Positions 30,737 through 41,160 of a DNA stretch of 64,000 bases are shown piece by piece (the stretch's first letter is position 1; every line of letters starts with the position of its first letter). The stretch is from Rhodobacterales bacterium. Lineage in GTDB: Bacteria; Pseudomonadota; Alphaproteobacteria; Rhodobacterales; Rhodobacteraceae. The notes under the pieces were generated by a model. That model searched no databases. It was given only the letters and a program-made list of their open reading frames with translations, and was not told where the DNA came from. The stretch lies in contig PDOZ01000032.1 in the NCBI GenBank assembly GCA_002747325.1, forward strand, positions 6,962 through 70,961, read 5' to 3'. A program made the position numbers and the translations under genes.

Positions 30737-32017
30737 CTACCCCAACAACTCCTCCAGCACCAACGCCATCACCTTGGCGCTGTCCACCATATCCTCAACC
30801 CCGATCCACTCATCCGGCTGATGCGCCAAATCCAGCACCCCCGGCCCATAGGCGATGCAATTCTTCAGCCGCCCGATGCGGTCGATATGCTTCTGATCAT
30901 ACGTTCCCGGCGACACGACAAATTCCGGCGCCGCGCCCAGAACCTTCTCAATCGCCGCCGCCGTTGACCGCACCACCGGCGCATCCTCGTCGGTCATGGA
31001 CGGGATCACCTCGTGCAACTCGCGCACCTCATAAGAGAAGCCCGGCCGCTCGACGCGGATTTTCTCCAGCATTTCAGACACTTCGCGTTTCACATCCTCA
31101 ATGCTTTCCTCCAGCAGGAACCGCCGGTCCAACACGATGCGGCACCGATCCGCCACGCAGGGCGCCGGGAACCCATTAAAGCCCGGCGCCATTTCCGGCT
31201 CGCCGCCATGAATGGAATTGATGTTGAGCGTCGATTGCCGCGCGCCTTCGGGCACCACCGGCATCTCGGTGCGTTTGCTGGCCAGAAGCGGCAACAGGTG
31301 ATGCTCGATCTGCTCCAGCACCGCGCCCATATGGTTAATCGCGCTATCGCCCAGAAACGGCATCGAACCATGCGCAATGCGCCCGTGGGTCTCGATTTCC
31401 GCCCACCAAACCCCGCGATGACCAAGGCAAATCCGGTCCTTGTTGAGCGGCTCCGGGATGATGACATGCTGCACCCGGTCCGGGCTGAAATAGCCTTGCT
31501 CGGCCAGATAAGCCACCCCGCCATACCCACCGCTCTCCTCGTCTGCGGTGGCGGAAATCTCGATGGCGCCGGCAAAATCGGGACACGCGGCGATGAAGGC
31601 TTCCGCCGCAATCACCGCCGTGGCAATGCCGCCCTTCATGTCACAAGCGCCGCGCCCGTAAATCCGGCCCCCGTCCAACTCGCCGCCAAACGGATCGCGG
31701 GTCCAGCCATTGCCGACCTCAACCACGTCATGATGGCCGTTGAAATGCACACATTCGCCGGGCCGCACCCCCTCGAACCGCGCCACCATATTCCAGCGCG
31801 GATATTGCGGCCCATCGCCGGGCGCCCCCTCGGCGCGGATATATTCCACCGACCAGCCGGTTTCCTCCAGCCGCGCCCCGAGCCAGTCGCAAACCTCGCG
31901 GTATTTATGCCCCGGCGGGTTCAGGGTCGGGATGCGGATCAATCCCTGCGTCAACTCAATCAGCGCTGTCCGCCGCGCCTCGATCTCTGCGGTAATCTGG
32001 TGTGCTACATCTTTCAT
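30737..32017 (-). CDS. M20 family metallopeptidase (ArgE/DapE/ACY1-like deacylase)
   Basis: 426-aa ORF with FNGHHDVV, GRGACDMKGG and ADEESGG metal-ligand motifs. Confidence 0.85.
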   Translation of the reverse strand: MKDVAHQITAEIEARRTALIELTQGLIRIPTLNPPGHKYREVCDWLGARLEETGWSVEYIRAEGAPGDGPQYPRWNMVARFEGVRPGECVHFNGHHDVVEVGNGWTRDPFGGELDGGRIYGRGACDMKGGIATAVIAAEAFIAACPDFAGAIEISATADEESGGYGGVAYLAEQGYFSPDRVQHVIIPEPLNKDRICLGHRGVWWAEIETHGRIAHGSMPFLGDSAINHMGAVLEQIEHHLLPLLASKRTEMPVVPEGARQSTLNINSIHGGEPEMAPGFNGFPAPCVADRCRIVLDRRFLLEESIEDVKREVSEMLEKIRVERPGFSYEVRELHEVIPSMTDEDAPVVRSTAAAIEKVLGAAPEFVVSPGTYDQKHIDRIGRLKNCIAYGPGVLDLAHQPDEWIGVEDMVDSAKVMALVLEELLG

Positions 32018-32046
32018 ACCCCGACGCTAGGCAAGCCGCGCCCTTC

Positions 32047-32074
32047 GCGCAAGCCTTGGCGCGCAAGCCTTGGC
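32047..32074. repeat. Perfect tandem duplication of the 14-mer GCGCAAGCCTTGGC
   Basis: Read directly at 32047-32060 and 32061-32074, in the region between the M20 gene start and the 32175 operon. Confidence 0.8.
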
Positions 32075-32112
32075 GAGAAAAACCCGGCGGGCGGGCGGTT
32101 TTTGCTGCCAAA

Positions 32113-32143
32113 TCTTTGAAATCGCGCTAACGTGGCCCATATC
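32113..32143 (+). promoter_or_regulatory. Sigma-32 (RpoH)-like promoter motif TCTTTGAA-N14-GCCCATATC
   Basis: It has the same architecture as the motif upstream of hsp20 in this window (CCCTTGAA-N14-CCCTAGATA) and resembles the classical CCCTTGAA-N13-15-CCCCATNTA consensus. It ends 31 nt before ATG 32175. Confidence 0.35.
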
Positions 32144-32174
32144 ATGTTACACGGCTTTACTTTGAGGGGGAAAA

Positions 32175-33254
32175 ATGGCGCAGACGTTCGAACAGCAAAT
32201 CGAGGCCAGCCAGAAGCAGGTCGCCGACGCGCAGGCAAAAATCGCGGAACTGACCACGCGTATTGAAACCACGCGCGCCAAGCTGGATTCCGGCGAGGAT
32301 GTGACCATCGACATCGAAAACGCCACCCTTGAGGACGTCGACGCCCATACCAAGGTGATGAACGCCAATATCGCCGAACTGATCATGGGGCTGGACGACG
32401 TAACCGCCGGATTTTCCAAAGATTTTGACGAGATACGCAACAAGACGGCGTGGGAAAGCTTCGTCGGCATTTTCTCCAAAGGCAAGTCGGAAAGCCTGCG
32501 TCAGGAACGGATGCGCACCGCGTCGATTGACGACAAATTGCAGGATCTGATCGGCAAATCCGACGTGATCGTAAACCTGTTGCAGGGCCAGCTTGCGATG
32601 CTGGAGCAGCAGAAAACCAAGGTGGAAGAAAACCTGAGCCTGACGCTGGACGACCGGGAAATGACCGTCGCGGAGCTGGAAAGCCTGCGCGCTGAGATCA
32701 AGGCGATGGACCCGCAGATCATCGAGCTGGAAAACCGCATCGCCTCGACGACGGACGCCGCCGAGCGCACCAAGCTGGAGACCGAACTGGCGGAAATCAA
32801 CGGTCGGTTCAACGAATTGGTGCAGCAGGAACAGGTCAAACTTGCGCGTTCGCAGACGCTGGAACGCTATATCGAGAAGGGCAAGACCTGGGTCGACAGC
32901 CTGCAAAATCAGGCGGCAACGCAGATGGTGCTGATCAACAAGCTGGAAACCGACACCAAGCAGCGGGTCGTGCTGTATGACGCCCTGTTGAAGTCGCTCA
33001 AAACCGCGCAGCAACAGGACATCGCGCACCGGATCAACGAGATCGGCGTCGAGACCGACAAGGAAGCGCAGGCGGCAATGGCGGCGATCGGCACCGCGAC
33101 CAATCAGAAGATGGCCGACATGATGGAAGCGCATGAGGAACACATGGTCTTCGCCCGCGACGTGCTGGAAGCCAAGGCGCGTGCCGACGAACGCTTCGCC
33201 CGCCGCTTCGCCGAGATCGTAGAGAAGCACGACAAGAATCTCTATGGGGCGTAA
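32175..33254 (+). CDS. Long coiled-coil protein, TelA (toxic anion resistance)/PspA-like
   Basis: 359 aa, rich in E/K/Q/L/A with long heptad-like stretches (LEQQKTKVEENLSL..., ELESLRAEIKAM..., ELAEINGRFNELVQQEQVKLARSQTLERYIEKGK). The segment FVGIFSKGKSESLRQERMRTASIDDKLQDLIGKSDVIVNLL recalls the TelA N-terminal core. No TM helix or signal peptide. The family call is tentative. Confidence 0.55.
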   Translation: MAQTFEQQIEASQKQVADAQAKIAELTTRIETTRAKLDSGEDVTIDIENATLEDVDAHTKVMNANIAELIMGLDDVTAGFSKDFDEIRNKTAWESFVGIFSKGKSESLRQERMRTASIDDKLQDLIGKSDVIVNLLQGQLAMLEQQKTKVEENLSLTLDDREMTVAELESLRAEIKAMDPQIIELENRIASTTDAAERTKLETELAEINGRFNELVQQEQVKLARSQTLERYIEKGKTWVDSLQNQAATQMVLINKLETDTKQRVVLYDALLKSLKTAQQQDIAHRINEIGVETDKEAQAAMAAIGTATNQKMADMMEAHEEHMVFARDVLEAKARADERFARRFAEIVEKHDKNLYGA

Positions 33255-33289
33255 CAGGAGCCGGTGGATGAACGGGAAGGAACAGCCCC

Positions 33290-34432
33290 ATGCCCGCCGG
33301 TGAGACCCGCCCGGAAAGCACGAAGGGTGCGCACCTGAGCGAGTCATCCGTTTCCCGGCGCTACTTCGCCAAATTCGCGGCGATCACGGACCATCTGGGC
33401 CGGGTGGCGGCGATGATGGAAGCGGAGGGGGCGTTCAGCCGCGAGGAGGTGGAAATCCTCGCGCGCTATATCCTTGCGCTGCGCTTCACCTTCCGCGCTC
33501 TGGGTTACAAATACCATATGTCCGGCCTGGCGGAAAACAGCGGGCGCATCGCCATTGACCGCACCGACAGCGGCTTTCCGGTCCATGCCGAACTGTTGCA
33601 AATGGCGGCGGATGCGGCGCAGGCGAGCAAGCACCTGAAACACAGCAAACCGCCCGCGGAGTTGAAAGCGGAGATGGTGCGGCGCATCGTCGGCGATCTC
33701 GAACACCCGACGCGGCTGCAATACGCCCTCTCGCAGCGGCTCTATTACGAGGAAATCGCCCGTGGCGATCTGTTCTGGCCGCAAATGGACCCGGACGCGC
33801 TGTGGCTTGGCAACGAGGAACGCGCGGGCACCTTGCGGCGGCGCTATCTCGTGCATTGGGCCGTCTATGACAGCGGACTGAACGTGCCGACCATTTATCT
33901 GATGGAGGTCGAGGATACGGGCAAAATCGCCCTGCCGCGCGACGAAAACCGCTGGCCGGAAGTGCAGACGCATCTGATGGCGCAGGCGGTGGCGGGGCTG
34001 AAACTTGTCACCATCGCCTCCGGGTTTGACAAGGATTTCGACCACTTACACCCCAAGACCCTGCGCCGCATCCATATCGGCCCGATGTATAGCCACAGCT
34101 ACACGCAGCAAAGCGGCCCGATCCGCGACGTGTTAGACAAAGCGCGCGCGCCGGAAGGGGAGGATTGGGCGCTGGCCTGGACGGTCGAGGCGCTGGAAAG
34201 CGCGTCGGTAACGCTGGAAAAATCCGGCTGGTTCAGCTCGGTTGAGCGCGAGATTTTCGCCATTGATCCACTGTCGGCGCAGAGCGTCGAGACCGGGGCG
34301 ACCCGCATCGAACGCGCCCTGATCCTGCCGCAGCGCCCGTATCAGGTTCTGGCGGAACAAGACCCGCCGGGTTTTCGGGGCTTGCGTAAATTCGTTGTCA
34401 GCCCGTCCGGCCGCGTCCTTTCTTATCGTTGA
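33290..34432 (+). CDS. Hypothetical protein (380 aa), no recognisable domain
   Basis: Good coding look (GC3-rich, GGAAGGA upstream of the ATG) and an operon position between the coiled-coil and AAA genes. I recognise no motifs. Confidence 0.7.
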   Translation: MPAGETRPESTKGAHLSESSVSRRYFAKFAAITDHLGRVAAMMEAEGAFSREEVEILARYILALRFTFRALGYKYHMSGLAENSGRIAIDRTDSGFPVHAELLQMAADAAQASKHLKHSKPPAELKAEMVRRIVGDLEHPTRLQYALSQRLYYEEIARGDLFWPQMDPDALWLGNEERAGTLRRRYLVHWAVYDSGLNVPTIYLMEVEDTGKIALPRDENRWPEVQTHLMAQAVAGLKLVTIASGFDKDFDHLHPKTLRRIHIGPMYSHSYTQQSGPIRDVLDKARAPEGEDWALAWTVEALESASVTLEKSGWFSSVEREIFAIDPLSAQSVETGATRIERALILPQRPYQVLAEQDPPGFRGLRKFVVSPSGRVLSYR

Positions 34433-34447
34433 ATTTCAGGGGGTTAT

Positions 34448-36391
34448 ATGTCCACACCGGGAAATCTGATCGAACTGCGCGAAGAGAAAATCCGCGCGCA
34501 TTACGGCACGGCGGAAGGCATGCTCGACGGGTTCGACCACACGCCACGCCTCGCCAAACCGCGCGTGGAAGAAGCAGGCGCGCCGCGCGAACGCTCCCCC
34601 GGCATCCCCCGCGCCCGCCGCTTTCGCTCCACCACCCCCGGCCTCGTCACCCGTAGCACCGCCCGCCCCGAGGGGGTGCATCTCGGCGCGCGCATCGAGG
34701 CCGCCGACGCGGACGATCCCCTGATTTCCCCCGCGCAGGCCAGCGCGCTTTTTGCCCTGCGCCGCGCTTTGGCCATCGCGCTGGCCATCGCGGAGAATTA
34801 CGCCGAGCAAACCGGGCTGGAAGAGTTGAAAAAGCAAAATCTGGGCCACGCCCTGCCCGACAGCGCGCGCGCCAAATTCACCGAGCTTCTGACCGCCGAA
34901 GCCCTGATCGGCCTCGCCGCTTTCGCCAATGCCGCCGGGTTCCTGACCGCACCGCTGGCGGGGGAAACCAACGTCGAGATCGGCGCCATCGAAGAGGTGC
35001 TGACCGACAACCTTCCCCTCGCCTTGCACGGCGCGCTGTGGGAACTGGATCAGGTGTTGGCGACCCATGCCAACAGCCCCGAAACCTGCCTCGCCAGCAT
35101 CGCCGCGTTCAGCGAACAACTGATGGAAAAGGTCGCCCTGCGCGCGGGCAATACCCCCCGGCTCGATGCCTTCACCGCCTCCTCCATCCGCATCGAGGCG
35201 GACGACCTGACCATCGCCGGCTTTGCCCCCTCCCGCAAAGCGCGCGGCACCGCCCTGACCATGCAATTCAAGGCGCCGCATGAGGTCGTGGGCAACCATA
35301 TCGCCAAGTATCAGGCGATGAAGCTGGCCAAGATGCTGATGGCCTATGATTTCGAGCGCAAGCTCAACCCCTTCGCCGAAATGGGCGGCTTCATCTTCAC
35401 CTTCATGGGCGACGGCGCGCCGGGCACCGGCAAGACCACCCTGATCCAGATGATGGCCGGGCTGATCCACGGCTATTGCGAAAACGCGGGCTACCCCTTC
35501 CGCTACCAGAACTTCGGCATCGACAATATCGACAGCTATCAGGGCAAATCCGGCCAGAACGCAAAAGCCTTTATCAACAACGTGTTAGACCCCAATGTCA
35601 TCGGCTTTGGCACGGTGGACGACATCGACCAGATCGCGGGCAAACGTGGCGACCGGCAAAGCTCGGCGGGGCAACAGGAGGTCACGGCGGTGCTGATGGA
35701 AGCCTTCGCCGGGGCCAATACCGTCGTGCGTGGCAACGCCACGTTTGGCATGTTTTCCAACTACCCGGAGAATGTCGACGACGCGCTGCGCCAACGCGCC
35801 GGGGCACGCTTCCTTGTCGACGGCCCGCAAACCCGCGACGATTATATCGACATTTTAGCCCTCCTGATGGGCAAAAACCACGACATCCCGCTGGGCGATC
35901 ACGCGCTGTACGCCGCGCAACAGATCGAAAAGGCGGTGGCGCAGAGTTTCGAAAGCCACGCCCGCCCGAAAGAAGCCGCCCTGCTCAAGGTTTACGATCA
36001 GGTTTCCGGCGAACTCGGCCCCCTCGACACCCTCGCCAAACTCGGCACCTACCTGAAACGCATTCAGGAAGTCGACCACCGCTTCACCGGCCGTGCCATC
36101 AAGAACATCACCGACGCGATCAAGGTCCGCGCGATGGATTTTGAACTGCCGGACGAGTGGATGGAAGACCCCGACCGCTTCCTGTTCAAACCGTATGACG
36201 AGAAAAAAGGCATGATCGGAGAGTTGCGCCGCAAAATCACGCTGGACATGGTGCTACAGGAAATCAACCGCTACGCCGACAGCGAATTCCGCTACGCCAA
36301 CAAATCCGACGAAGCCGCCATCGCCAAAATGGTGCGCGACTTCGGCCTGACAGAAGAGGCCAAGCGGCGGTATCTGGAGGGGAAAGGGTGA
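34448..36391 (+). CDS. Classic-clade AAA+ ATPase with about 310-aa unknown N-terminal region and about 170-aa C-terminal extension
   Basis: Walker A GAPGTGKT (nt 35414-35437), Walker B FGTVDDID (VDDID at nt 35615-35629), and a sensor-1/second-region-of-homology-like FSNYPENVDDALRQRAGARF. AGGGGG Shine-Dalgarno upstream. Confidence 0.85.
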   Translation: MSTPGNLIELREEKIRAHYGTAEGMLDGFDHTPRLAKPRVEEAGAPRERSPGIPRARRFRSTTPGLVTRSTARPEGVHLGARIEAADADDPLISPAQASALFALRRALAIALAIAENYAEQTGLEELKKQNLGHALPDSARAKFTELLTAEALIGLAAFANAAGFLTAPLAGETNVEIGAIEEVLTDNLPLALHGALWELDQVLATHANSPETCLASIAAFSEQLMEKVALRAGNTPRLDAFTASSIRIEADDLTIAGFAPSRKARGTALTMQFKAPHEVVGNHIAKYQAMKLAKMLMAYDFERKLNPFAEMGGFIFTFMGDGAPGTGKTTLIQMMAGLIHGYCENAGYPFRYQNFGIDNIDSYQGKSGQNAKAFINNVLDPNVIGFGTVDDIDQIAGKRGDRQSSAGQQEVTAVLMEAFAGANTVVRGNATFGMFSNYPENVDDALRQRAGARFLVDGPQTRDDYIDILALLMGKNHDIPLGDHALYAAQQIEKAVAQSFESHARPKEAALLKVYDQVSGELGPLDTLAKLGTYLKRIQEVDHRFTGRAIKNITDAIKVRAMDFELPDEWMEDPDRFLFKPYDEKKGMIGELRRKITLDMVLQEINRYADSEFRYANKSDEAAIAKMVRDFGLTEEAKRRYLEGKG

Positions 36392-37296
36392 TGGAAAGAC
36401 GATTTGTTATTAAACCGGAAGGATCTCCCGATTTTCCCGGGATGATGTTTGTAACATTAAAAGCACTCAAAAAACTCGGTGGGTCTGCAAGAAACCAAGA
36501 GTTAGATGAAGCAGTCGTAGAACTCGAAGGTGTGTCCGAAGAAGAGCAATCATTTATGATGTCCGGCAAGAACAGCAGCCAGCCGCGACTGAACTATTAT
36601 CTGGCATGGGCAAGAACTTATCTAAAAAAGGCCGACCTAATCGAAAACTCCCAACGTGCCGTTTGGTCGCTTACAGATAGGGGAAAAGAACATCAAAGTC
36701 TTAAAAAACTGACCAACTTATATGACAGCACCGAAAAGGAGCGCTCGAAAAAACGACGTGCCGCCCAACAAAGTCAATCCGACCCGACGCAAAACGATCA
36801 GCCTTTCGATGCACCGGATGAGGAAGCGGCGACCGATGAAAACTGGCGTGAAAAGCTTCTTAGCGTATTGCGCGCAATGGATCCCAGCGCATTTGAACGC
36901 CTGAGCCAGAAACTTCTGCGCGAAGCTGGCTTTATCAAGGTGGAAGTGCGCGGAAAGAGTGGGGATGGCGGCATTGACGGTGTTGGTGTTTTGCGGATGA
37001 ACCTCGTGTCCTTTCAGGTGTTTTTCCAATGCAAACGCTATAAGGGCAGCGTCAGTTCCGGGGAAATTCGCGACTTTCGCGGTGCCATGATTGGCCGCGC
37101 GGACAAGGGGTTATTCATCACTACGGGAACCTTCACCGCTCAGGCTCGGAGCGAAGCCACGCGCGACGGTGCATCCACCATCGATCTGATCGACGGCGAA
37201 GCATTCTGCGATTTGCTCAAGGCAAATAACTTGGGCGTGGCAACAGAAATGATTGAGCGTGTCTCAATTAATGAAGCTTGGTTTGGAGCGGTTTGA
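36391..37296 (+). CDS. mrr: Mrr-family restriction endonuclease (Mrr_N winged helix plus PD-(D/E)xK Mrr_cat)
   Basis: N-terminus FPGMMFVTLKALKKLGGSARNQELDEAV...RLNYYLAWARTYLKKADLIEN...WSLTDRG (Mrr_N) and catalytic region GDGGIDGVGV...FQVFFQCKRYKG (D...QxK). The ATG overlaps the AAA stop by 1 nt (TGATG). GC is visibly lower than in the neighbours. Confidence 0.85.
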   Translation: MERRFVIKPEGSPDFPGMMFVTLKALKKLGGSARNQELDEAVVELEGVSEEEQSFMMSGKNSSQPRLNYYLAWARTYLKKADLIENSQRAVWSLTDRGKEHQSLKKLTNLYDSTEKERSKKRRAAQQSQSDPTQNDQPFDAPDEEAATDENWREKLLSVLRAMDPSAFERLSQKLLREAGFIKVEVRGKSGDGGIDGVGVLRMNLVSFQVFFQCKRYKGSVSSGEIRDFRGAMIGRADKGLFITTGTFTAQARSEATRDGASTIDLIDGEAFCDLLKANNLGVATEMIERVSINEAWFGAV

Positions 37297-37297
37297 C

Positions 37298-38638
37298 ATG
37301 AAACGTCTAATCGAACGCGGGCTGATGTTTGGCAACCTGATCCGGGTGGACAGTCCGGCTTTGGTGGGGCGCTATAACCGGGCGTTGGAGAAGCTCACCG
37401 GCAAGCGCACCGGGTTGCAGGCCTTTCATATCGACATTTCCGGCTACTCTTACGAGATGGGCGAGGAATTGGGGGATCATCTTTATCTCAACCCCAACGG
37501 CGTCAACCGGATGTTCATCCTGCTCACCACCGAACAGAAGCGCGCGCCTTTGCTCAACGCGCAATTCTCCACTTCGCGCGGAATTTTGCGCCAGTTCATT
37601 GAGGAAAACGAAGCCAAGCTGTTTGCCCTGACCGCGCATGACGCTGTAGCCGGGGAGTTGGACAATTCGGTATTTCGGGCCGACAGCCCGGCGCGACTGT
37701 TTGACATTCGTCGCATCACGATCGAGGCGGATACCACGCAGTCGCATGTCGAGAACGCCCGCAAGCTGGCGGAGAAGATCGAGACCTTTACCAGCGCCGA
37801 AAATGCGTGGTTCGATGAAGCACTGATCGACGAAATGATTGCGTTGGCGCGCGAAACCGGCGACGTAACGCGCCACCCGATCGACCTCGCACGGCCCACC
37901 TATGAGCAGGGCAATTTCTGGACCGCGCATTTTGGCGGCATTTATGTTTTCCGCGATGTGGACCGCCCCGCCGCGATTACCGTGCGCGACAAGGCATCGC
38001 TGTCGCCCATGCCGATTGACACGCTCGACCTGAGCGAGCGCAACGCCATCGCTGCCTTTCTCGACCGCAACGACCTCGTGGAACCGATCATCAAGGCGCG
38101 CGGCGTCGATGGGGCGGCGATCCTGCGGCAAAAGATGGATTTCATCCTTGTCGATGCGGCGACGCGGGCGGGGCTGGACATTCCCGGTTTCGACAGCCGC
38201 TCGCTGCACCGCTTGGCCACCCGCATGGGCCGCGCCCTGCCCGAAAGCTTCATCCAGCTGAACGCCCTCGTGCGTTGGGCGCTTAACGGGGGCAAATGGC
38301 CGCGCATCACCTCCAAAAGCCCGGCCTATTTCTACACCCTGCGCGCCCGCGCCGATCACCCGGACCGCGATCTGATTAACCAGCTTCTCACTGAGCTGTC
38401 CCCCGCCGACATCCGGCAACTCTTCATCACCCACAAACAAGCCTTCTACCGCGCCTATGCCAGCTGGCCCGAGCGCAAGAAAAGCTATGTTGCCGATTTC
38501 CTGCACCATGATTACATGGCAAACAAGGCAGGCGCGCGCGAGGCGCTGTTCGGCGGCAAACCAACCCCGCCGGAACGCGATCTGGTCGACCTCGTTGGCC
38601 CGTGGGGTGCCTTCAAACGCCGCGACCGCGACAGATAG
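37298..38638 (+). CDS. Hypothetical protein (446 aa), no recognisable domain
   Basis: ATG 37298 lies 1 nt after the mrr stop, and the high-GC codon usage matches the flanking genes. I recognise no catalytic motifs. Confidence 0.7.
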   Translation: MKRLIERGLMFGNLIRVDSPALVGRYNRALEKLTGKRTGLQAFHIDISGYSYEMGEELGDHLYLNPNGVNRMFILLTTEQKRAPLLNAQFSTSRGILRQFIEENEAKLFALTAHDAVAGELDNSVFRADSPARLFDIRRITIEADTTQSHVENARKLAEKIETFTSAENAWFDEALIDEMIALARETGDVTRHPIDLARPTYEQGNFWTAHFGGIYVFRDVDRPAAITVRDKASLSPMPIDTLDLSERNAIAAFLDRNDLVEPIIKARGVDGAAILRQKMDFILVDAATRAGLDIPGFDSRSLHRLATRMGRALPESFIQLNALVRWALNGGKWPRITSKSPAYFYTLRARADHPDRDLINQLLTELSPADIRQLFITHKQAFYRAYASWPERKKSYVADFLHHDYMANKAGAREALFGGKPTPPERDLVDLVGPWGAFKRRDRDR

Positions 38639-38646
38639 GAGCAAAC

Positions 38647-38913
38647 ATGCATTTCGTCAGACTGATTATCTTCGGCGGCCTTGCCCTGTCGGTAGTGTTC
38701 TTCGCCGCCTCGTGGTTTTTCCGCTCGACCCGCCGCGAGGCGCTGGAAAAGGAATGGGACGCCGACCACCCCGACGGGGACGAGGCGGATCGGGACGCCT
38801 TCGTCGAGGCAGGCATCGCCGAATATAACGCCGGCATCGTGCCCAAGCTCCTCTGGCTGATCTACATCCTCCCCGGCCTGTTCATCCTTTACACCCTGAT
38901 CACAACCAACTGA
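38647..38913 (+). CDS. Small membrane protein (88 aa, two predicted TM helices)
   Basis: MHFVRLIIFGGLALSVVFFAASWFF...acidic loop...LLWLIYILPGLFILYTLI. AGGAG lies 6 nt upstream and the start is 8 nt after the previous stop. Confidence 0.65.
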   Translation: MHFVRLIIFGGLALSVVFFAASWFFRSTRREALEKEWDADHPDGDEADRDAFVEAGIAEYNAGIVPKLLWLIYILPGLFILYTLITTN

Positions 38914-38921
38914 GACCCGCC

Positions 38922-39602
38922 ATGCGCATCTTTCGCAACACCTTACTCACCGTCTTCGCCCTGCTGGCATTCGGCTTTTTTCATTATGTGCTGCCGCAAC
39001 ACGACGTGGCCCGCATCACCGGCACCGAGATCATCCGCATGGATTTCTCCGGCTGGAACCGCATCTTCTTCGCCCGTTCTGACAGCGGCAACAGCGAGCT
39101 GACCACCCGCGACATCCGCCTCGTCAATGCGGTGAAGAAAAAGACCTGGATCTGGGGCTTTTTCCAGCGCGACAGCGAAGAGGTAATGGTTTACCGCAAC
39201 GAGGACACCGGCTGGATCTGGCCGCCCTATTTCAAGTTCGACAGTTCCGATTTGCAGGCACAGGCACTGGCCAACCTGTCCACGCCGGAGAAAGAACAAT
39301 GGGTCGTCATTACCCATTACGGCTGGCGCAACCGCTTCTTCACCATCTACCCGAACGTGGTCGGTATCCGTCCGGTCGATGGGCCGGATGTGCGGGTAAT
39401 CCCTTGGTTCAACATCATTTTCTTCGTGTCCCTCGCCTTTGTCCTCCTGTTCATCCGGGCGCTCTGGATACAATTTCGCGAGCGCAAGATCGACCCGGCG
39501 CTGGAGGATACCCGCGACGCATGGGAGAAGGTCGATGCCTATGCGGACGAAAAACGCGGGCGGTTTTCGCGCTGGCTCGATACGTGGCGCAGCAAGAAGT
39601 GA
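38922..39602 (+). CDS. DUF1523-like membrane-anchored protein
   Basis: 226 aa with an N-terminal TM helix (LLTVFALLAFGFFHYVL), an aromatic-rich middle (WIWGFFQRD, WIWPPYFKFD) and a C-terminal TM helix. The family name is recalled and was not searched. Confidence 0.65.
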   Translation: MRIFRNTLLTVFALLAFGFFHYVLPQHDVARITGTEIIRMDFSGWNRIFFARSDSGNSELTTRDIRLVNAVKKKTWIWGFFQRDSEEVMVYRNEDTGWIWPPYFKFDSSDLQAQALANLSTPEKEQWVVITHYGWRNRFFTIYPNVVGIRPVDGPDVRVIPWFNIIFFVSLAFVLLFIRALWIQFRERKIDPALEDTRDAWEKVDAYADEKRGRFSRWLDTWRSKK

Positions 39603-39693
39603 GGCAGGGCGCCGGTTTTTCCTTGCACTGAGGCCCGTTCGCGGGCTTCAATGACATACCCCGCGCCAAAAGCGGGGAACAGGAGGGAGATCC

Positions 39694-41160
39694 ATGAACA
39701 AGCTCAAGCTCGCCGCCGCCGTGCTGGCACTCACCGCCGGCACCGCCATGGCAAAGGACACACTAAGCGTCGGTATGGTGCTGGAACCGCCAAACCTTGA
39801 TCCGACCGCCGGGGCCGCTGCCGCCATTGACGAGATCGTTTACGCCAACGTCTTTGAGGGGCTGACCCGCTTTGGCCCGGATGGCGCCGTGCTGCCCGCG
39901 CTGGCGCATCATTGGGAAGTGTCCGAAGATGGGCTGATCTATACGTTCCATCTGGAGAGGGGTGTCACCTTCCATGACGGCACGGACATGAACGCCGCGG
40001 ACGTGGTGTTCAGCCTCGACCGCGCCCGTGCGGAAGGTTCGACCAACGCGCAAAAGCCGCTCTTTGCCGGGATCGAGAAGGTGGAAGCGATCGACCCGCT
40101 GACGGTTCAGGTCACGCTGTCTGAACCGAACGGCAATTTCCTCTTCAACATGGCCTGGGGCGATGCCGTCATCGTCGGCGAGGAGAGCATCGCGGAAGCC
40201 GCGACGCATCCGGTCGGCACCGGCCCCTTCGCCTTCACCGAATGGGTTGGCGGCGATCACGTCACCCTGACGCGCTCGGACAGCTATTGGGGCGATGCCC
40301 CGGCGCTGGCTTCCGCCACCTTCAAATTCATCTCGGACCCGAACGCCGCTTTCGCCGCGCTGATGGCGGGCGATGTCGACGCTTTCCCGAACTTCCCGGC
40401 GCCTGAAACGCTGGCACAGTTTGAAAACAACCCGATGTTCAAGGTGATTCGCGGCTCGACCGAGGGCGAAACCATCCTCACCATGAACAACAAATCCGGC
40501 ATTCTGACGGATGTGCGGGTGCGTGAGGCCATCGCCCATGCAATCAACCGCGCCGAGATCATCGACGGGGCCATGTTCGGTTTCGGCACCCCGATCGGCA
40601 CCCATTTCCCGCCGCATCACCCCGATTACGTCGACCTGACCGGCCTGTCCGAATATGACCCGGCGAAGTCGAAAGCACTTCTGGCCGAAGCCGGTGCGGA
40701 AGGCGAAACCCTGCGCCTCGCCCTGCCGCCCGCGCCCTATGCCCGCCGGGGCGGCGAGATCATCGCCTCGCAACTGCGCGCCGTGGGCCTGAAGGTTGAG
40801 GTGAGCAATGTCGAATGGGCGCAGTGGATCGAACAGGTGTTCAAGGGCAAGGATTTTGACCTGACCATCGTCAGCCACACCGAACCCGCCGACATCAACA
40901 CCTATGCCAACCCGGATTACTATTACCAGTATGACAACCCGGAGCTGCAAGCGTTGATCGCCAAACTGGCCGTAACCTCCGACCCGGCCAAGCGCTCGGC
41001 GCTCAACAAGGAAGCGCAGGAAATCATCGCGCGCGACTATGTGAACGGCTTCCTGTTCCAGCTCGCCAAAACCGGCGTCGCCAACGCGAAGGTGAACGGC
41101 CTCTGGGCCAACGCGCCGACACAGGCCAACGACCTGACCGGCGTATCCTGGGCCGACTGA
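39694..41160 (+). CDS. ABC transporter substrate-binding protein (family 5, peptide/nickel/opine type)
   Basis: Signal peptide MNKLKLAAAVLALTAGTAMA followed by a family-5 SBP core (488 aa). Confidence 0.88.
   Translation: MNKLKLAAAVLALTAGTAMAKDTLSVGMVLEPPNLDPTAGAAAAIDEIVYANVFEGLTRFGPDGAVLPALAHHWEVSEDGLIYTFHLERGVTFHDGTDMNAADVVFSLDRARAEGSTNAQKPLFAGIEKVEAIDPLTVQVTLSEPNGNFLFNMAWGDAVIVGEESIAEAATHPVGTGPFAFTEWVGGDHVTLTRSDSYWGDAPALASATFKFISDPNAAFAALMAGDVDAFPNFPAPETLAQFENNPMFKVIRGSTEGETILTMNNKSGILTDVRVREAIAHAINRAEIIDGAMFGFGTPIGTHFPPHHPDYVDLTGLSEYDPAKSKALLAEAGAEGETLRLALPPAPYARRGGEIIASQLRAVGLKVEVSNVEWAQWIEQVFKGKDFDLTIVSHTEPADINTYANPDYYYQYDNPELQALIAKLAVTSDPAKRSALNKEAQEIIARDYVNGFLFQLAKTGVANAKVNGLWANAPTQANDLTGVSWAD

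Follow-up and report, generated by a model that had tools for sequence, protein, structure and literature searches.

How does a low-GC restriction gene come to lie, with exact junctions, between two high-GC genes of an operon, and does it serve those genes or only travel with them? The question is raised by an Mrr-family nuclease gene in a 64,000-nucleotide (nt) stretch of a Rhodobacterales bacterium (GenBank assembly GCA_002747325.1, contig PDOZ01000032.1, positions 6,962 to 70,961 of the forward strand; hereafter the window), where it is flanked by genes for a AAA ATPase and a DUF6638 protein. An original prediction, made from this sequence, offered two explanations: a recently acquired effector filling a variable slot of a defense system, or a stand-alone type IV restriction gene hitch-hiking on a stress-induced transcript. 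We find that the AAA-DUF6638 junction is a hypervariable slot in related bacteria and that the same Mrr lineage recurs in it, and we consider it moderately probable that Mrr is a stand-alone, translationally coupled cargo of a long-lived hotspot that is free of mobility genes.

A compositional outlier with exact junctions

The Mrr gene stands apart from its neighbors in full-length GC, third-position GC, sliding-window GC, and codon usage, confirming the outlier proposed from hand counts of its 5' end (90 G/C in the first 200 nt, 0.45, and 55 in the 90 nt upstream, 0.61), which we reproduce. Over its full length its GC content is 0.500 and its GC content at third codon positions (GC3) is 0.510, whereas GC3 is 0.77 to 0.85 in the other five cluster genes, the upstream M20 peptidase gene, and the downstream transport genes (coiled-coil gene, 0.803; gene for a 380-amino-acid [380-aa] protein, 0.785; AAA, 0.812; DUF6638, 0.772; DUF1523, 0.793; SBP5, 0.804). 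In 300-nt sliding windows, GC reaches its minimum of 0.447 at 36400-36699, a dip confined to the Mrr gene, with values of 0.58 to 0.72 upstream and of at least 0.60 again by 37600. Among 49 genes called crudely from open reading frames (ORFs) in the window, Mrr ranks lowest in GC, GC3, and a codon adaptation index-like score (0.535 versus 0.714 ± 0.074 for the window calls).

Both junctions are as exact as first described. The AAA stop codon (TGA, 36389-36391) shares its A with the Mrr ATG at 36391 (TGATG), initiation at an alternative GTG at 36388 would instead produce a GTGA overlap with the same stop, and the Mrr stop (37294-37296) is followed by a single C and then by the DUF6638 ATG at 37298. 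A repeat search at the locus revealed no meaningful direct or inverted repeats bracketing Mrr and a domain scan of the neighbors no mobility genes, again in agreement with the earlier description. The same AAA-Mrr-DUF6638 order is present in the complete genomes of Phaeobacter piscinae and Roseovarius phycicola, and the arrangement is thus not an assembly artifact; the ORF is real and intact.

We note a 14-nt near-repeat, CGGG(A/C)TGATGTTTG, at 36438-36451 and 37318-37331, some 20 to 50 nt into the 5' ends of Mrr (where it encodes PGMMF) and DUF6638 (RGLMFG). It lies inside both coding regions, is the sole similarity between Mrr and DUF6638, and is probably due to chance.

A hypervariable slot between AAA and DUF6638

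A one-genome-per-species scan located the DUF6638 gene in at least 581 genomes, and the best 80 loci were analyzed; the closest sequenced relatives of the window organism are Sinisalibacter and Maritimibacter, at ∼77% protein identity. All analyzed loci with sufficient flanking sequence have the same cluster in the same gene order, with shared synteny (M20 peptidase upstream, DUF1523 and SBP5 downstream) and with identities graded among the relatives; DUF1523 lies downstream of the slot in all 80. Mrr, however, is missing from the slot, being absent or replaced, in 79 of these 80 closest species loci, so that the possibility of an Mrr gene carried by all relatives with a congruent phylogeny does not fit. 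The AAA-to-DUF6638 interval ranges from 2 to 2,942 nt (median 772; 84 junctions measured) and is the most variable of the cluster, whereas the DUF6638-to-DUF1523 interval is constant at ∼270 nt (89 loci) and the interval from the 380-aa gene to AAA has a median of 66 nt. The idea of a variable slot thus holds, with unrelated genes lying between the same anchors.

The slot contents could be classified at 83 loci with both flanks. Low-GC3 cargo, defined as an ORF of at least 120 aa with GC3 at least 0.15 below the flanks, is present at 56, small multi-pass membrane ORFs with mostly host-like GC3 are the only content at 17, another 6 have other content, and 4 are essentially empty. The plus-strand slot ORFs, a set that consists in part of alternative-frame ORFs, form 66 similarity groups with 50 singletons. 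Annotated cargo includes DUF559 endonucleases, DUF2971/PDC-S31 proteins, and weak DUF5677-like and DrmA-N-terminus-like matches, but the majority of cargo representatives belong to no family, and many of them combine membrane and coiled-coil segments. ORF clustering also suggested a 12-member cargo family, which was rejected because it arises from a small membrane ORF read in another frame.

The content turns over quickly, as pairs of close relatives illustrate. A 344-aa cargo protein that weakly matches the DrmA N-terminus is 98% identical between Aliiroseovarius salicola and A. crassostreae (loci L020 and L030), with AAA at 91% and DUF6638 at 84%; a cargo more alike than its flanks points to recent cassette exchange into the same slot. 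In two other Aliiroseovarius species (L018 and L021) the flanks are 92 to 95% identical and the cargo is 45% identical over a fragment. An identical DUF6638 protein is found in 13 contigs; of four contigs displayed, two span the slot, with equal content, and two end before reaching it. Neither the window cluster nor the annotated related loci show an association of this hotspot with an integrase, a transposase, or a tRNA. Literature searches on Mrr in Rhodobacteraceae or on operon-internal hotspots returned general defense-island work only, and as far as the searchable literature shows, a translationally coupled hypervariable slot of this kind is undescribed; we find it more interesting than Mrr itself.

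The largest slots (up to 2.9 kb; L046, L053, and L039) hold DUF559 endonuclease-like genes embedded in GC-rich repetitive DNA that translates to PPPSPPHKGEGS-like strings and may be a repeat element.

Junction anatomy and probable translational coupling

The 3' end of the AAA gene, aagcggcggtatctggaggggaaggggTGA, encodes KRRYLEGKG followed by the stop codon and is conserved at the nucleotide level across genera in the 83 loci. It includes a Shine-Dalgarno-like GGAGGGG (36376-36382) with a GGAGG core. In 75 of the 83 loci, the ORF that follows starts before the AAA stop codon ends, through a GTGA or ATGA overlap in 70 and a one-base stop/start overlap of the TGATG type in 5 more. At the other end, 65 of 87 loci have a final slot ORF whose stop codon falls within the ATGA that opens DUF6638. 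Of the 11 junctions read in which Mrr adjoins DUF6638, 10 have a spacer of −1 to +3 nt, and that of Sulfitobacter has 131 nt. In the empty-slot locus L041, AAA and DUF6638 overlap directly by ATGA. The cargo is co-oriented with its flanks throughout and is nearly always joined to both by start/stop overlaps, and unrelated cargo families thereby appear to be fitted into the translational-coupling chain of the operon at both ends. Codon-exact junctions that lack repeats, attC-like sites, and mobility genes argue for selection over time on inserted genes and not for raw, recent insertions.

A solitary Mrr-family endonuclease

Every sequence criterion that we applied places the protein in the Mrr family, in agreement with the original call, and as an enzyme it is an unremarkable addition to a known family. 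Both domains are recognized by Pfam (Table 1), with the Mrr_N match above the gathering score; the PADLOC mREase_IV model matches with an E value of 6.8e-28; and BLASTP aligns residues 25 to 298 with residues 18 to 303 of EcoKMrr across both domains (25% identity, E = 1e-18). The catalytic signature GDGGIDG ... FQCKR is complete and the D...QxK site is present, with the catalytic residues aligning with the VQAKR motif of EcoKMrr; an alignment of 27 homologues, nearly identical in their C-terminal halves, shows no variation at D196, Q213, C214, or K215. No methyltransferase family was found among the cluster and nearest flanking genes scanned (30.7 to 42.3 kb), and Mrr is in that sense solitary. 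It is thus probably a complete, active, stand-alone modification-dependent (type IV) endonuclease.

EcoKMrr combines a winged-helix domain with an Mrr-cat domain carrying a PD-QxK site, restricts DNA that carries N6-methyladenine (6mA) or 5-methylcytosine (5mC) in particular contexts, and is regulated by switching between tetramer and dimer (PMC12707154). G6mANTC methylation by M.HhaII sensitizes DNA to, or triggers, this enzyme (PMC12707154). The window protein has the same N-terminal winged helix and PD-QxK Mrr_cat domain and nearly the same length (301 versus 304 aa). Because CcrM places GANTC methylation, the trigger mark of EcoKMrr, throughout alphaproteobacterial genomes, we infer that the window Mrr must either differ in specificity or be held inactive.

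The same Mrr lineage recurs in the slot

Mrr occupies this slot at 13 distinct loci, the window and 12 others, at 58 to 65% identity to the window protein. Its hosts include Tateyamaria, Phaeobacter piscinae, Roseovarius phycicola, Shimia thalassica, Sulfitobacter mediterraneus, the metagenome-assembled genome (MAG) J128, and Litorimonas haliclonae, and in five metagenome contigs an Mrr gene (58 to 64% identical) adjoins AAA or DUF6638 genes. Litorimonas is an alphaproteobacterium outside the Rhodobacterales and possesses the cluster in full. The sole exact match to the window Mrr derives from the same MAG and metagenome, and the best non-self match in a search of 5.8 billion proteins is 65% identical.

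The low GC3 shows no sign of recent arrival and appears to be a stable property of the Mrr cargo. Across the 13 loci the GC3 deficit relative to the flanks is 0.23 to 0.36 (mean 0.30, standard deviation 0.03), and Mrr GC3 correlates with flank GC3 (r = 0.89, p = 5e-5); a gene brought in recently from a single low-GC source would not be expected to follow its hosts so closely. The deficit is also gene specific and not positional, since the small membrane ORFs of the slot have mostly host-like GC3. With the nearest non-self protein at 65%, the same lineage at 12 other loci, and a host-tracking GC3, the suggestion that the gene was recently acquired finds no backing here.

The lineage is not restricted to the cluster, and many Mrr relatives at 54 to 62% identity have no AAA or DUF6638 gene nearby. 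In Sphingopyxis (L086/L087, 7279-9572), a 61%-identical Mrr with a GC content of 0.54 in a host of 0.66 lies between dapB and nth and overlaps dapB by 4 nt, so that tight packing inside strings of core genes seems to be a habit of Mrr that is not limited to the AAA-DUF6638 slot.

Probable descent, replacement, and exchange

Distances at the nine loci with complete flanks indicate that Mrr has not simply followed its neighbors. AAA and DUF6638 distances correlate strongly (rho = 0.78), whereas Mrr distances correlate weakly with those of either flank (rho = 0.34 to 0.39). Litorimonas is the outgroup for DUF6638 (51 to 56% identity) but not for Mrr (61 to 70%), and in L002, which has the closest flanks (DUF6638 at 77%), Mrr is 62% identical, no nearer than in distant genera. 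Overall, in-slot Mrr identities are 59 to 76%, with 69 to 80% for AAA and 51 to 71% for DUF6638. The window Mrr has a mean identity of 64.8% to in-slot Mrrs versus 59.2% to those outside the slot. The most economical reading is a long-standing slot-associated Mrr lineage that would have been inherited in part, often lost or replaced, and at times exchanged.

We propose that the slot would be a long-lived cargo site in a vertically inherited six-gene cluster, filled in most species by some other low-GC gene overlapped into both flanks, and that Mrr would be one recurrent occupant, which some lines have kept by inheritance, most have lost or replaced, and a few have exchanged with one another at times. 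The N-terminal winged helix of Mrr would read modified DNA, and the C-terminal PD-QxK nuclease would cut it. Having no apparent promoter of its own, the gene is most likely transcribed from a promoter upstream of the coiled-coil gene, and its translation is most likely coupled to that of AAA, with the conserved AAA 3' end providing the Shine-Dalgarno sequence and the overlapping stop codon.

Several observations weigh against this proposal. Monophyly of the in-slot Mrrs is weak in a neighbor-joining tree with ten other in-slot Mrrs (the Shimia and Sulfitobacter genes, fetched later, are not in it), being recovered in 42% of bootstraps without the window sequence and in 25% with it, and the window Mrr sits on a long branch that may reflect relaxed constraint. 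Slot-proximal flank similarity is not significantly raised among Mrr-bearing loci (residual +0.006, permutation p = 0.25), a test that is weak at the divergences among these loci, and a mechanism of cargo entry was not found, with no repeats or mobility genes at the slot. Co-transcription and translational coupling are both read from junction anatomy, and profile and structure searches of the conserved cluster yielded no function. We note also that in the Rhodobacterales and Litorimonas genomes examined, the Mrr of this lineage lies in the slot in seven of seven, which could signal a functional tie to AAA and DUF6638.

Alternative explanations

A recent import from a lower-GC donor, not yet ameliorated, would account for the GC3 of 0.51, which no other gene call in the window undercuts and which compares with ∼0.80 in the flanks, and for a slot without Mrr in 79 of the 80 closest species loci; recent exchange also happens for other cargo, as in the Aliiroseovarius pair with cargo at 98% and flanks at 84 to 91%. 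We nonetheless regard such an import as highly improbable, as no close donor is seen among 5.8 billion proteins (best non-self match, 65%), a deficit of 0.30 ± 0.03 in 13 hosts with r = 0.89 is the reverse of the pattern expected from a shared recent donor, the junctions are polished (a stop/start overlap upstream and a DUF6638 spacer of −1 to +3 nt in 10 of 11), and the window Mrr clusters, if loosely, with the slot lineage. The converse possibility is that Mrr is ancestral and has been inherited strictly vertically since before the split of Rhodobacterales and Litorimonas, with independent losses or replacements thereafter. The same position and junction style in distant genera agree with this, as do in-slot Mrr identities (59 to 76%) of the same order as those of the flanks, the tendency of in-slot Mrrs to group, and a GC3 that tracks the host. 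Set against these are Mrr distances that follow the flanks weakly (rho of 0.34 to 0.39 versus 0.78), the position of Litorimonas as outgroup for DUF6638 (51 to 56%) but not for Mrr (61 to 70%), the 62% identity of the L002 Mrr despite the closest flanks (DUF6638 at 77%), a very patchy distribution, and a GC3 deficit that persists though synonymous sites must be saturated; strict vertical inheritance is thus an improbable account.

A different question is whether Mrr works for the cluster. If the cluster is an immune system, AAA, DUF6638, and their partners would make up an unchanging module for sensing or activation, the slot would provide interchangeable effectors, and Mrr would depend on the module. 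The slot is indeed occupied in 79 of 83 loci, always by co-oriented cargo translationally coupled at both ends; this cargo comprises nucleases and membrane-spanning proteins of the abortive-infection effector kind, with PADLOC matches to mREase_IV, PDC-S02, PDC-S31, and, weakly, DrmA; and the Mrr lineage is in the slot in all seven Rhodobacterales and Litorimonas genomes. Known defense systems, however, are patchy and mobile, whereas the distribution of this cluster is neither: it is syntenic in at least 581 species genomes, reaching Litorimonas, and its AAA and DUF6638 proteins evolve in step (rho = 0.78) but only weakly with Mrr (0.34 to 0.39). The conserved proteins give weak, generic PADLOC hits (JetC and LmuB for the coiled-coil protein and TRIP13 for AAA, all with E values of 1e-4 to 1e-3) and no match for the 380-aa protein, DUF6638, or DUF1523. 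Four of the 83 slots are essentially empty and 17 have only small membrane ORFs, although these may themselves be effectors, and Mrr has its own sensor domain and occurs in the same lineage outside the cluster. An immune cluster with a dependent Mrr is therefore unlikely, and the effector role proposed at the outset is not borne out by a cluster that exists with an empty slot and an Mrr lineage that exists without the cluster. Of the other original proposal, the part that fits best is a stand-alone type IV gene on the operon transcript, which would be independent of the AAA protein. The stress induction goes unsupported: a consensus scan of 31900-39800 found a sigma-70-like site upstream of the first cluster gene as its best promoter-like site, a consensus match only, nothing immediately upstream of Mrr, and no sign of stress control.

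We can also picture the cluster as an undescribed, vertically inherited platform of marine Alphaproteobacteria whose AAA-DUF6638 junction docks interchangeable single-gene cassettes (Mrr, DUF559, DUF2971, and membrane/coiled-coil proteins), in its strongest form a core-genome immune system that uses the docked effector; this is an improbable extension. The AAA 3' end (Shine-Dalgarno sequence and stop) and the DUF6638 ATGA would then ensure expression of both the docked gene and those downstream, and cassettes would move by homologous recombination in the conserved flanks, possibly via gene transfer agents. Gene transfer agent heads package about 4 kb, a capacity that would fit the observed 2.9-kb ceiling of the slot.

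Comparison with known hotspots

A coupled cargo gene in a long-lived slot, as we favor for Mrr, has partial parallels elsewhere. EcoKMrr is likewise solitary, without an adjoining methyltransferase, and in a variable region between conserved anchors, although it is only 25% identical to the window Mrr and is not embedded in an operon by start/stop overlaps. Its region is the immigration control region between yjiA and yjiN, in which Mrr occupies 22% of Escherichia coli loci (PMC12707154). The core defense hotspots of Pseudomonas aeruginosa are likewise reported to have variable and partly defensive content between conserved anchors (PMC10250203). Variable, partly defensive content between fixed anchors is what our slot has in common with these core-flanked hotspots; it differs in being operon internal, no larger than 2.9 kb, and usually filled by one gene, with cargo that is co-oriented, stop/start fused, mostly without recognizable defense annotation, and unaccompanied by an integrase, transposase, or repeat. 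Integron cassettes are similar in being promoterless single genes of unrelated functions, in one orientation, behind an upstream promoter, but neither the window nor the related loci with annotated neighbors showed an integrase gene, and with cargo ORFs that run directly into the flanking codons, attC sites would have no room.

CBASS, Lamassu, and Avs are defense systems with swappable effectors that are patchy and mobile. They resemble this cluster in that a conserved ATPase module lies beside a position with nucleases or membrane proteins, but the cluster is syntenic across an order, occurs also without cargo, and matches no known model. The hotspots of P2 phages and P4 satellites that Rousset et al. 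reportedly described in 2022 are said to hold short, highly variable, low-GC anti-phage cassettes between conserved genes, and homologous recombination in the flanking genes is the reported route of their exchange. In contrast, the frame here is a chromosomal cluster without detectable affinity to phages: its PHROG hits are generic, and its 380-aa protein has no viral fold match.

What is unusual is thus the setting, an accessory and partly defensive hotspot inside a conserved operon, without mobility genes and with codon-exact, apparently coupled junctions, that has taken up unrelated genes throughout a whole order of bacteria abundant in the sea. If our reading is correct, the slot would be a natural system for the integrase-free recruitment and swapping of promoterless genes and for asking why accessory genes hold a fixed GC3 deficit over the long term, as well as a handle on the role of the uncharacterized AAA/DUF6638 cluster. 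Reading the content of the AAA-DUF6638 slot is also a simple route to candidate defense genes in Roseobacter-group genomes.

The conserved genes around the slot

The genes of the cluster are all co-oriented and tightly packed (Table 1). Searches of the conserved proteins with Pfam (also at relaxed thresholds), NCBIfam, PADLOC, and PHROGs returned generic AAA and coiled-coil noise only. The coiled-coil protein is 74 to 83% identical across the 80 relatives, and the nearest solved relatives of the AAA protein in a sequence search of the Protein Data Bank (PDB) are the Yme1 i-AAA ATPase domain and FIGL1. An AlphaFold2 (AF2) model of the 380-aa protein (predicted local distance difference test score [pLDDT] of 85, predicted template modeling score of 0.84) has an N-terminal helical bundle followed by long beta-hairpin sheets; Foldseek found no significant match for it in the PDB or in BFVD, a viral structure library, and the protein may have an undescribed fold.

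TABLE 1 Features of the Mrr gene and the surrounding cluster (window coordinates)
Feature	Coordinates	Strand	Basis or remarks
Candidate sigma-70-like promoter (TTGAAA, 18-nt spacer, TATCAT)	32116-32145	+	10/12 consensus matches
Coiled-coil protein, 359 aa, first gene of the cluster	32175-33254	+	No Pfam family; generic coiled-coil matches only
380-aa protein	33290-34432	+	No Pfam, NCBIfam, PADLOC, or PHROG match
Classical AAA ATPase, 647 aa	34448-36391	+	PF00004, E = 1.3e-10
Mrr-family type IV restriction endonuclease, 301 aa	36391-37296	+	Pfam, PADLOC, EcoKMrr alignment
Mrr_N winged-helix DNA-recognition domain, residues 17-100	36439-36690	+	PF14338, E = 3e-19
Mrr_cat PD-(D/E)xK nuclease domain, residues 160-276	36868-37218	+	PF04471, E = 1.5e-30
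Catalytic D196	36976-36978	+	Within Mrr_cat
Catalytic Q213-C214-K215	37027-37035	+	Within Mrr_cat
DUF6638 protein, 446 aa, downstream anchor of the slot	37298-38638	+	PF20343, E = 2e-224
Conserved membrane protein, 88 aa	38647-38913	+	Read from sequence, between DUF6638 and DUF1523
DUF1523 protein, last conserved gene of the cluster	38922-39602	+	PF07509, E = 1.9e-61

For DUF6638, 2,915 homologues were found; it has no sequence match in the PDB, its AF2 model is mediocre (pLDDT of 68) and without a significant Foldseek match in the PDB or BFVD, and it is not mentioned in the searchable literature. Titles and abstracts on DUF1523 held nothing relevant. The small membrane gene between DUF6638 and DUF1523 recurs with unchanged spacing in all relatives, and it is called, at 87 to 91 aa, in L001, L082-L084, L088, and L170-L175.

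In the contig that carries the identical Mrr (L001, PDWJ01038646.1), DUF6638 (1553-2728) is shortened to 391 aa, with 85% identity over the alignment, which could reflect a frameshift, a strain variant, or an assembly error. We also note a second, weaker variable junction, between the coiled-coil and 380-aa genes, where the interval is −12 to 772 nt in 76 loci, with at least 300 nt in 28 of them, and 35 nt in the window (33255-33289). It is variable in the relatives L037, L040, L066, L069, L071, L082, and L083, of which L082 and L083 hold small ORFs with GC3 of 0.57 to 0.59.

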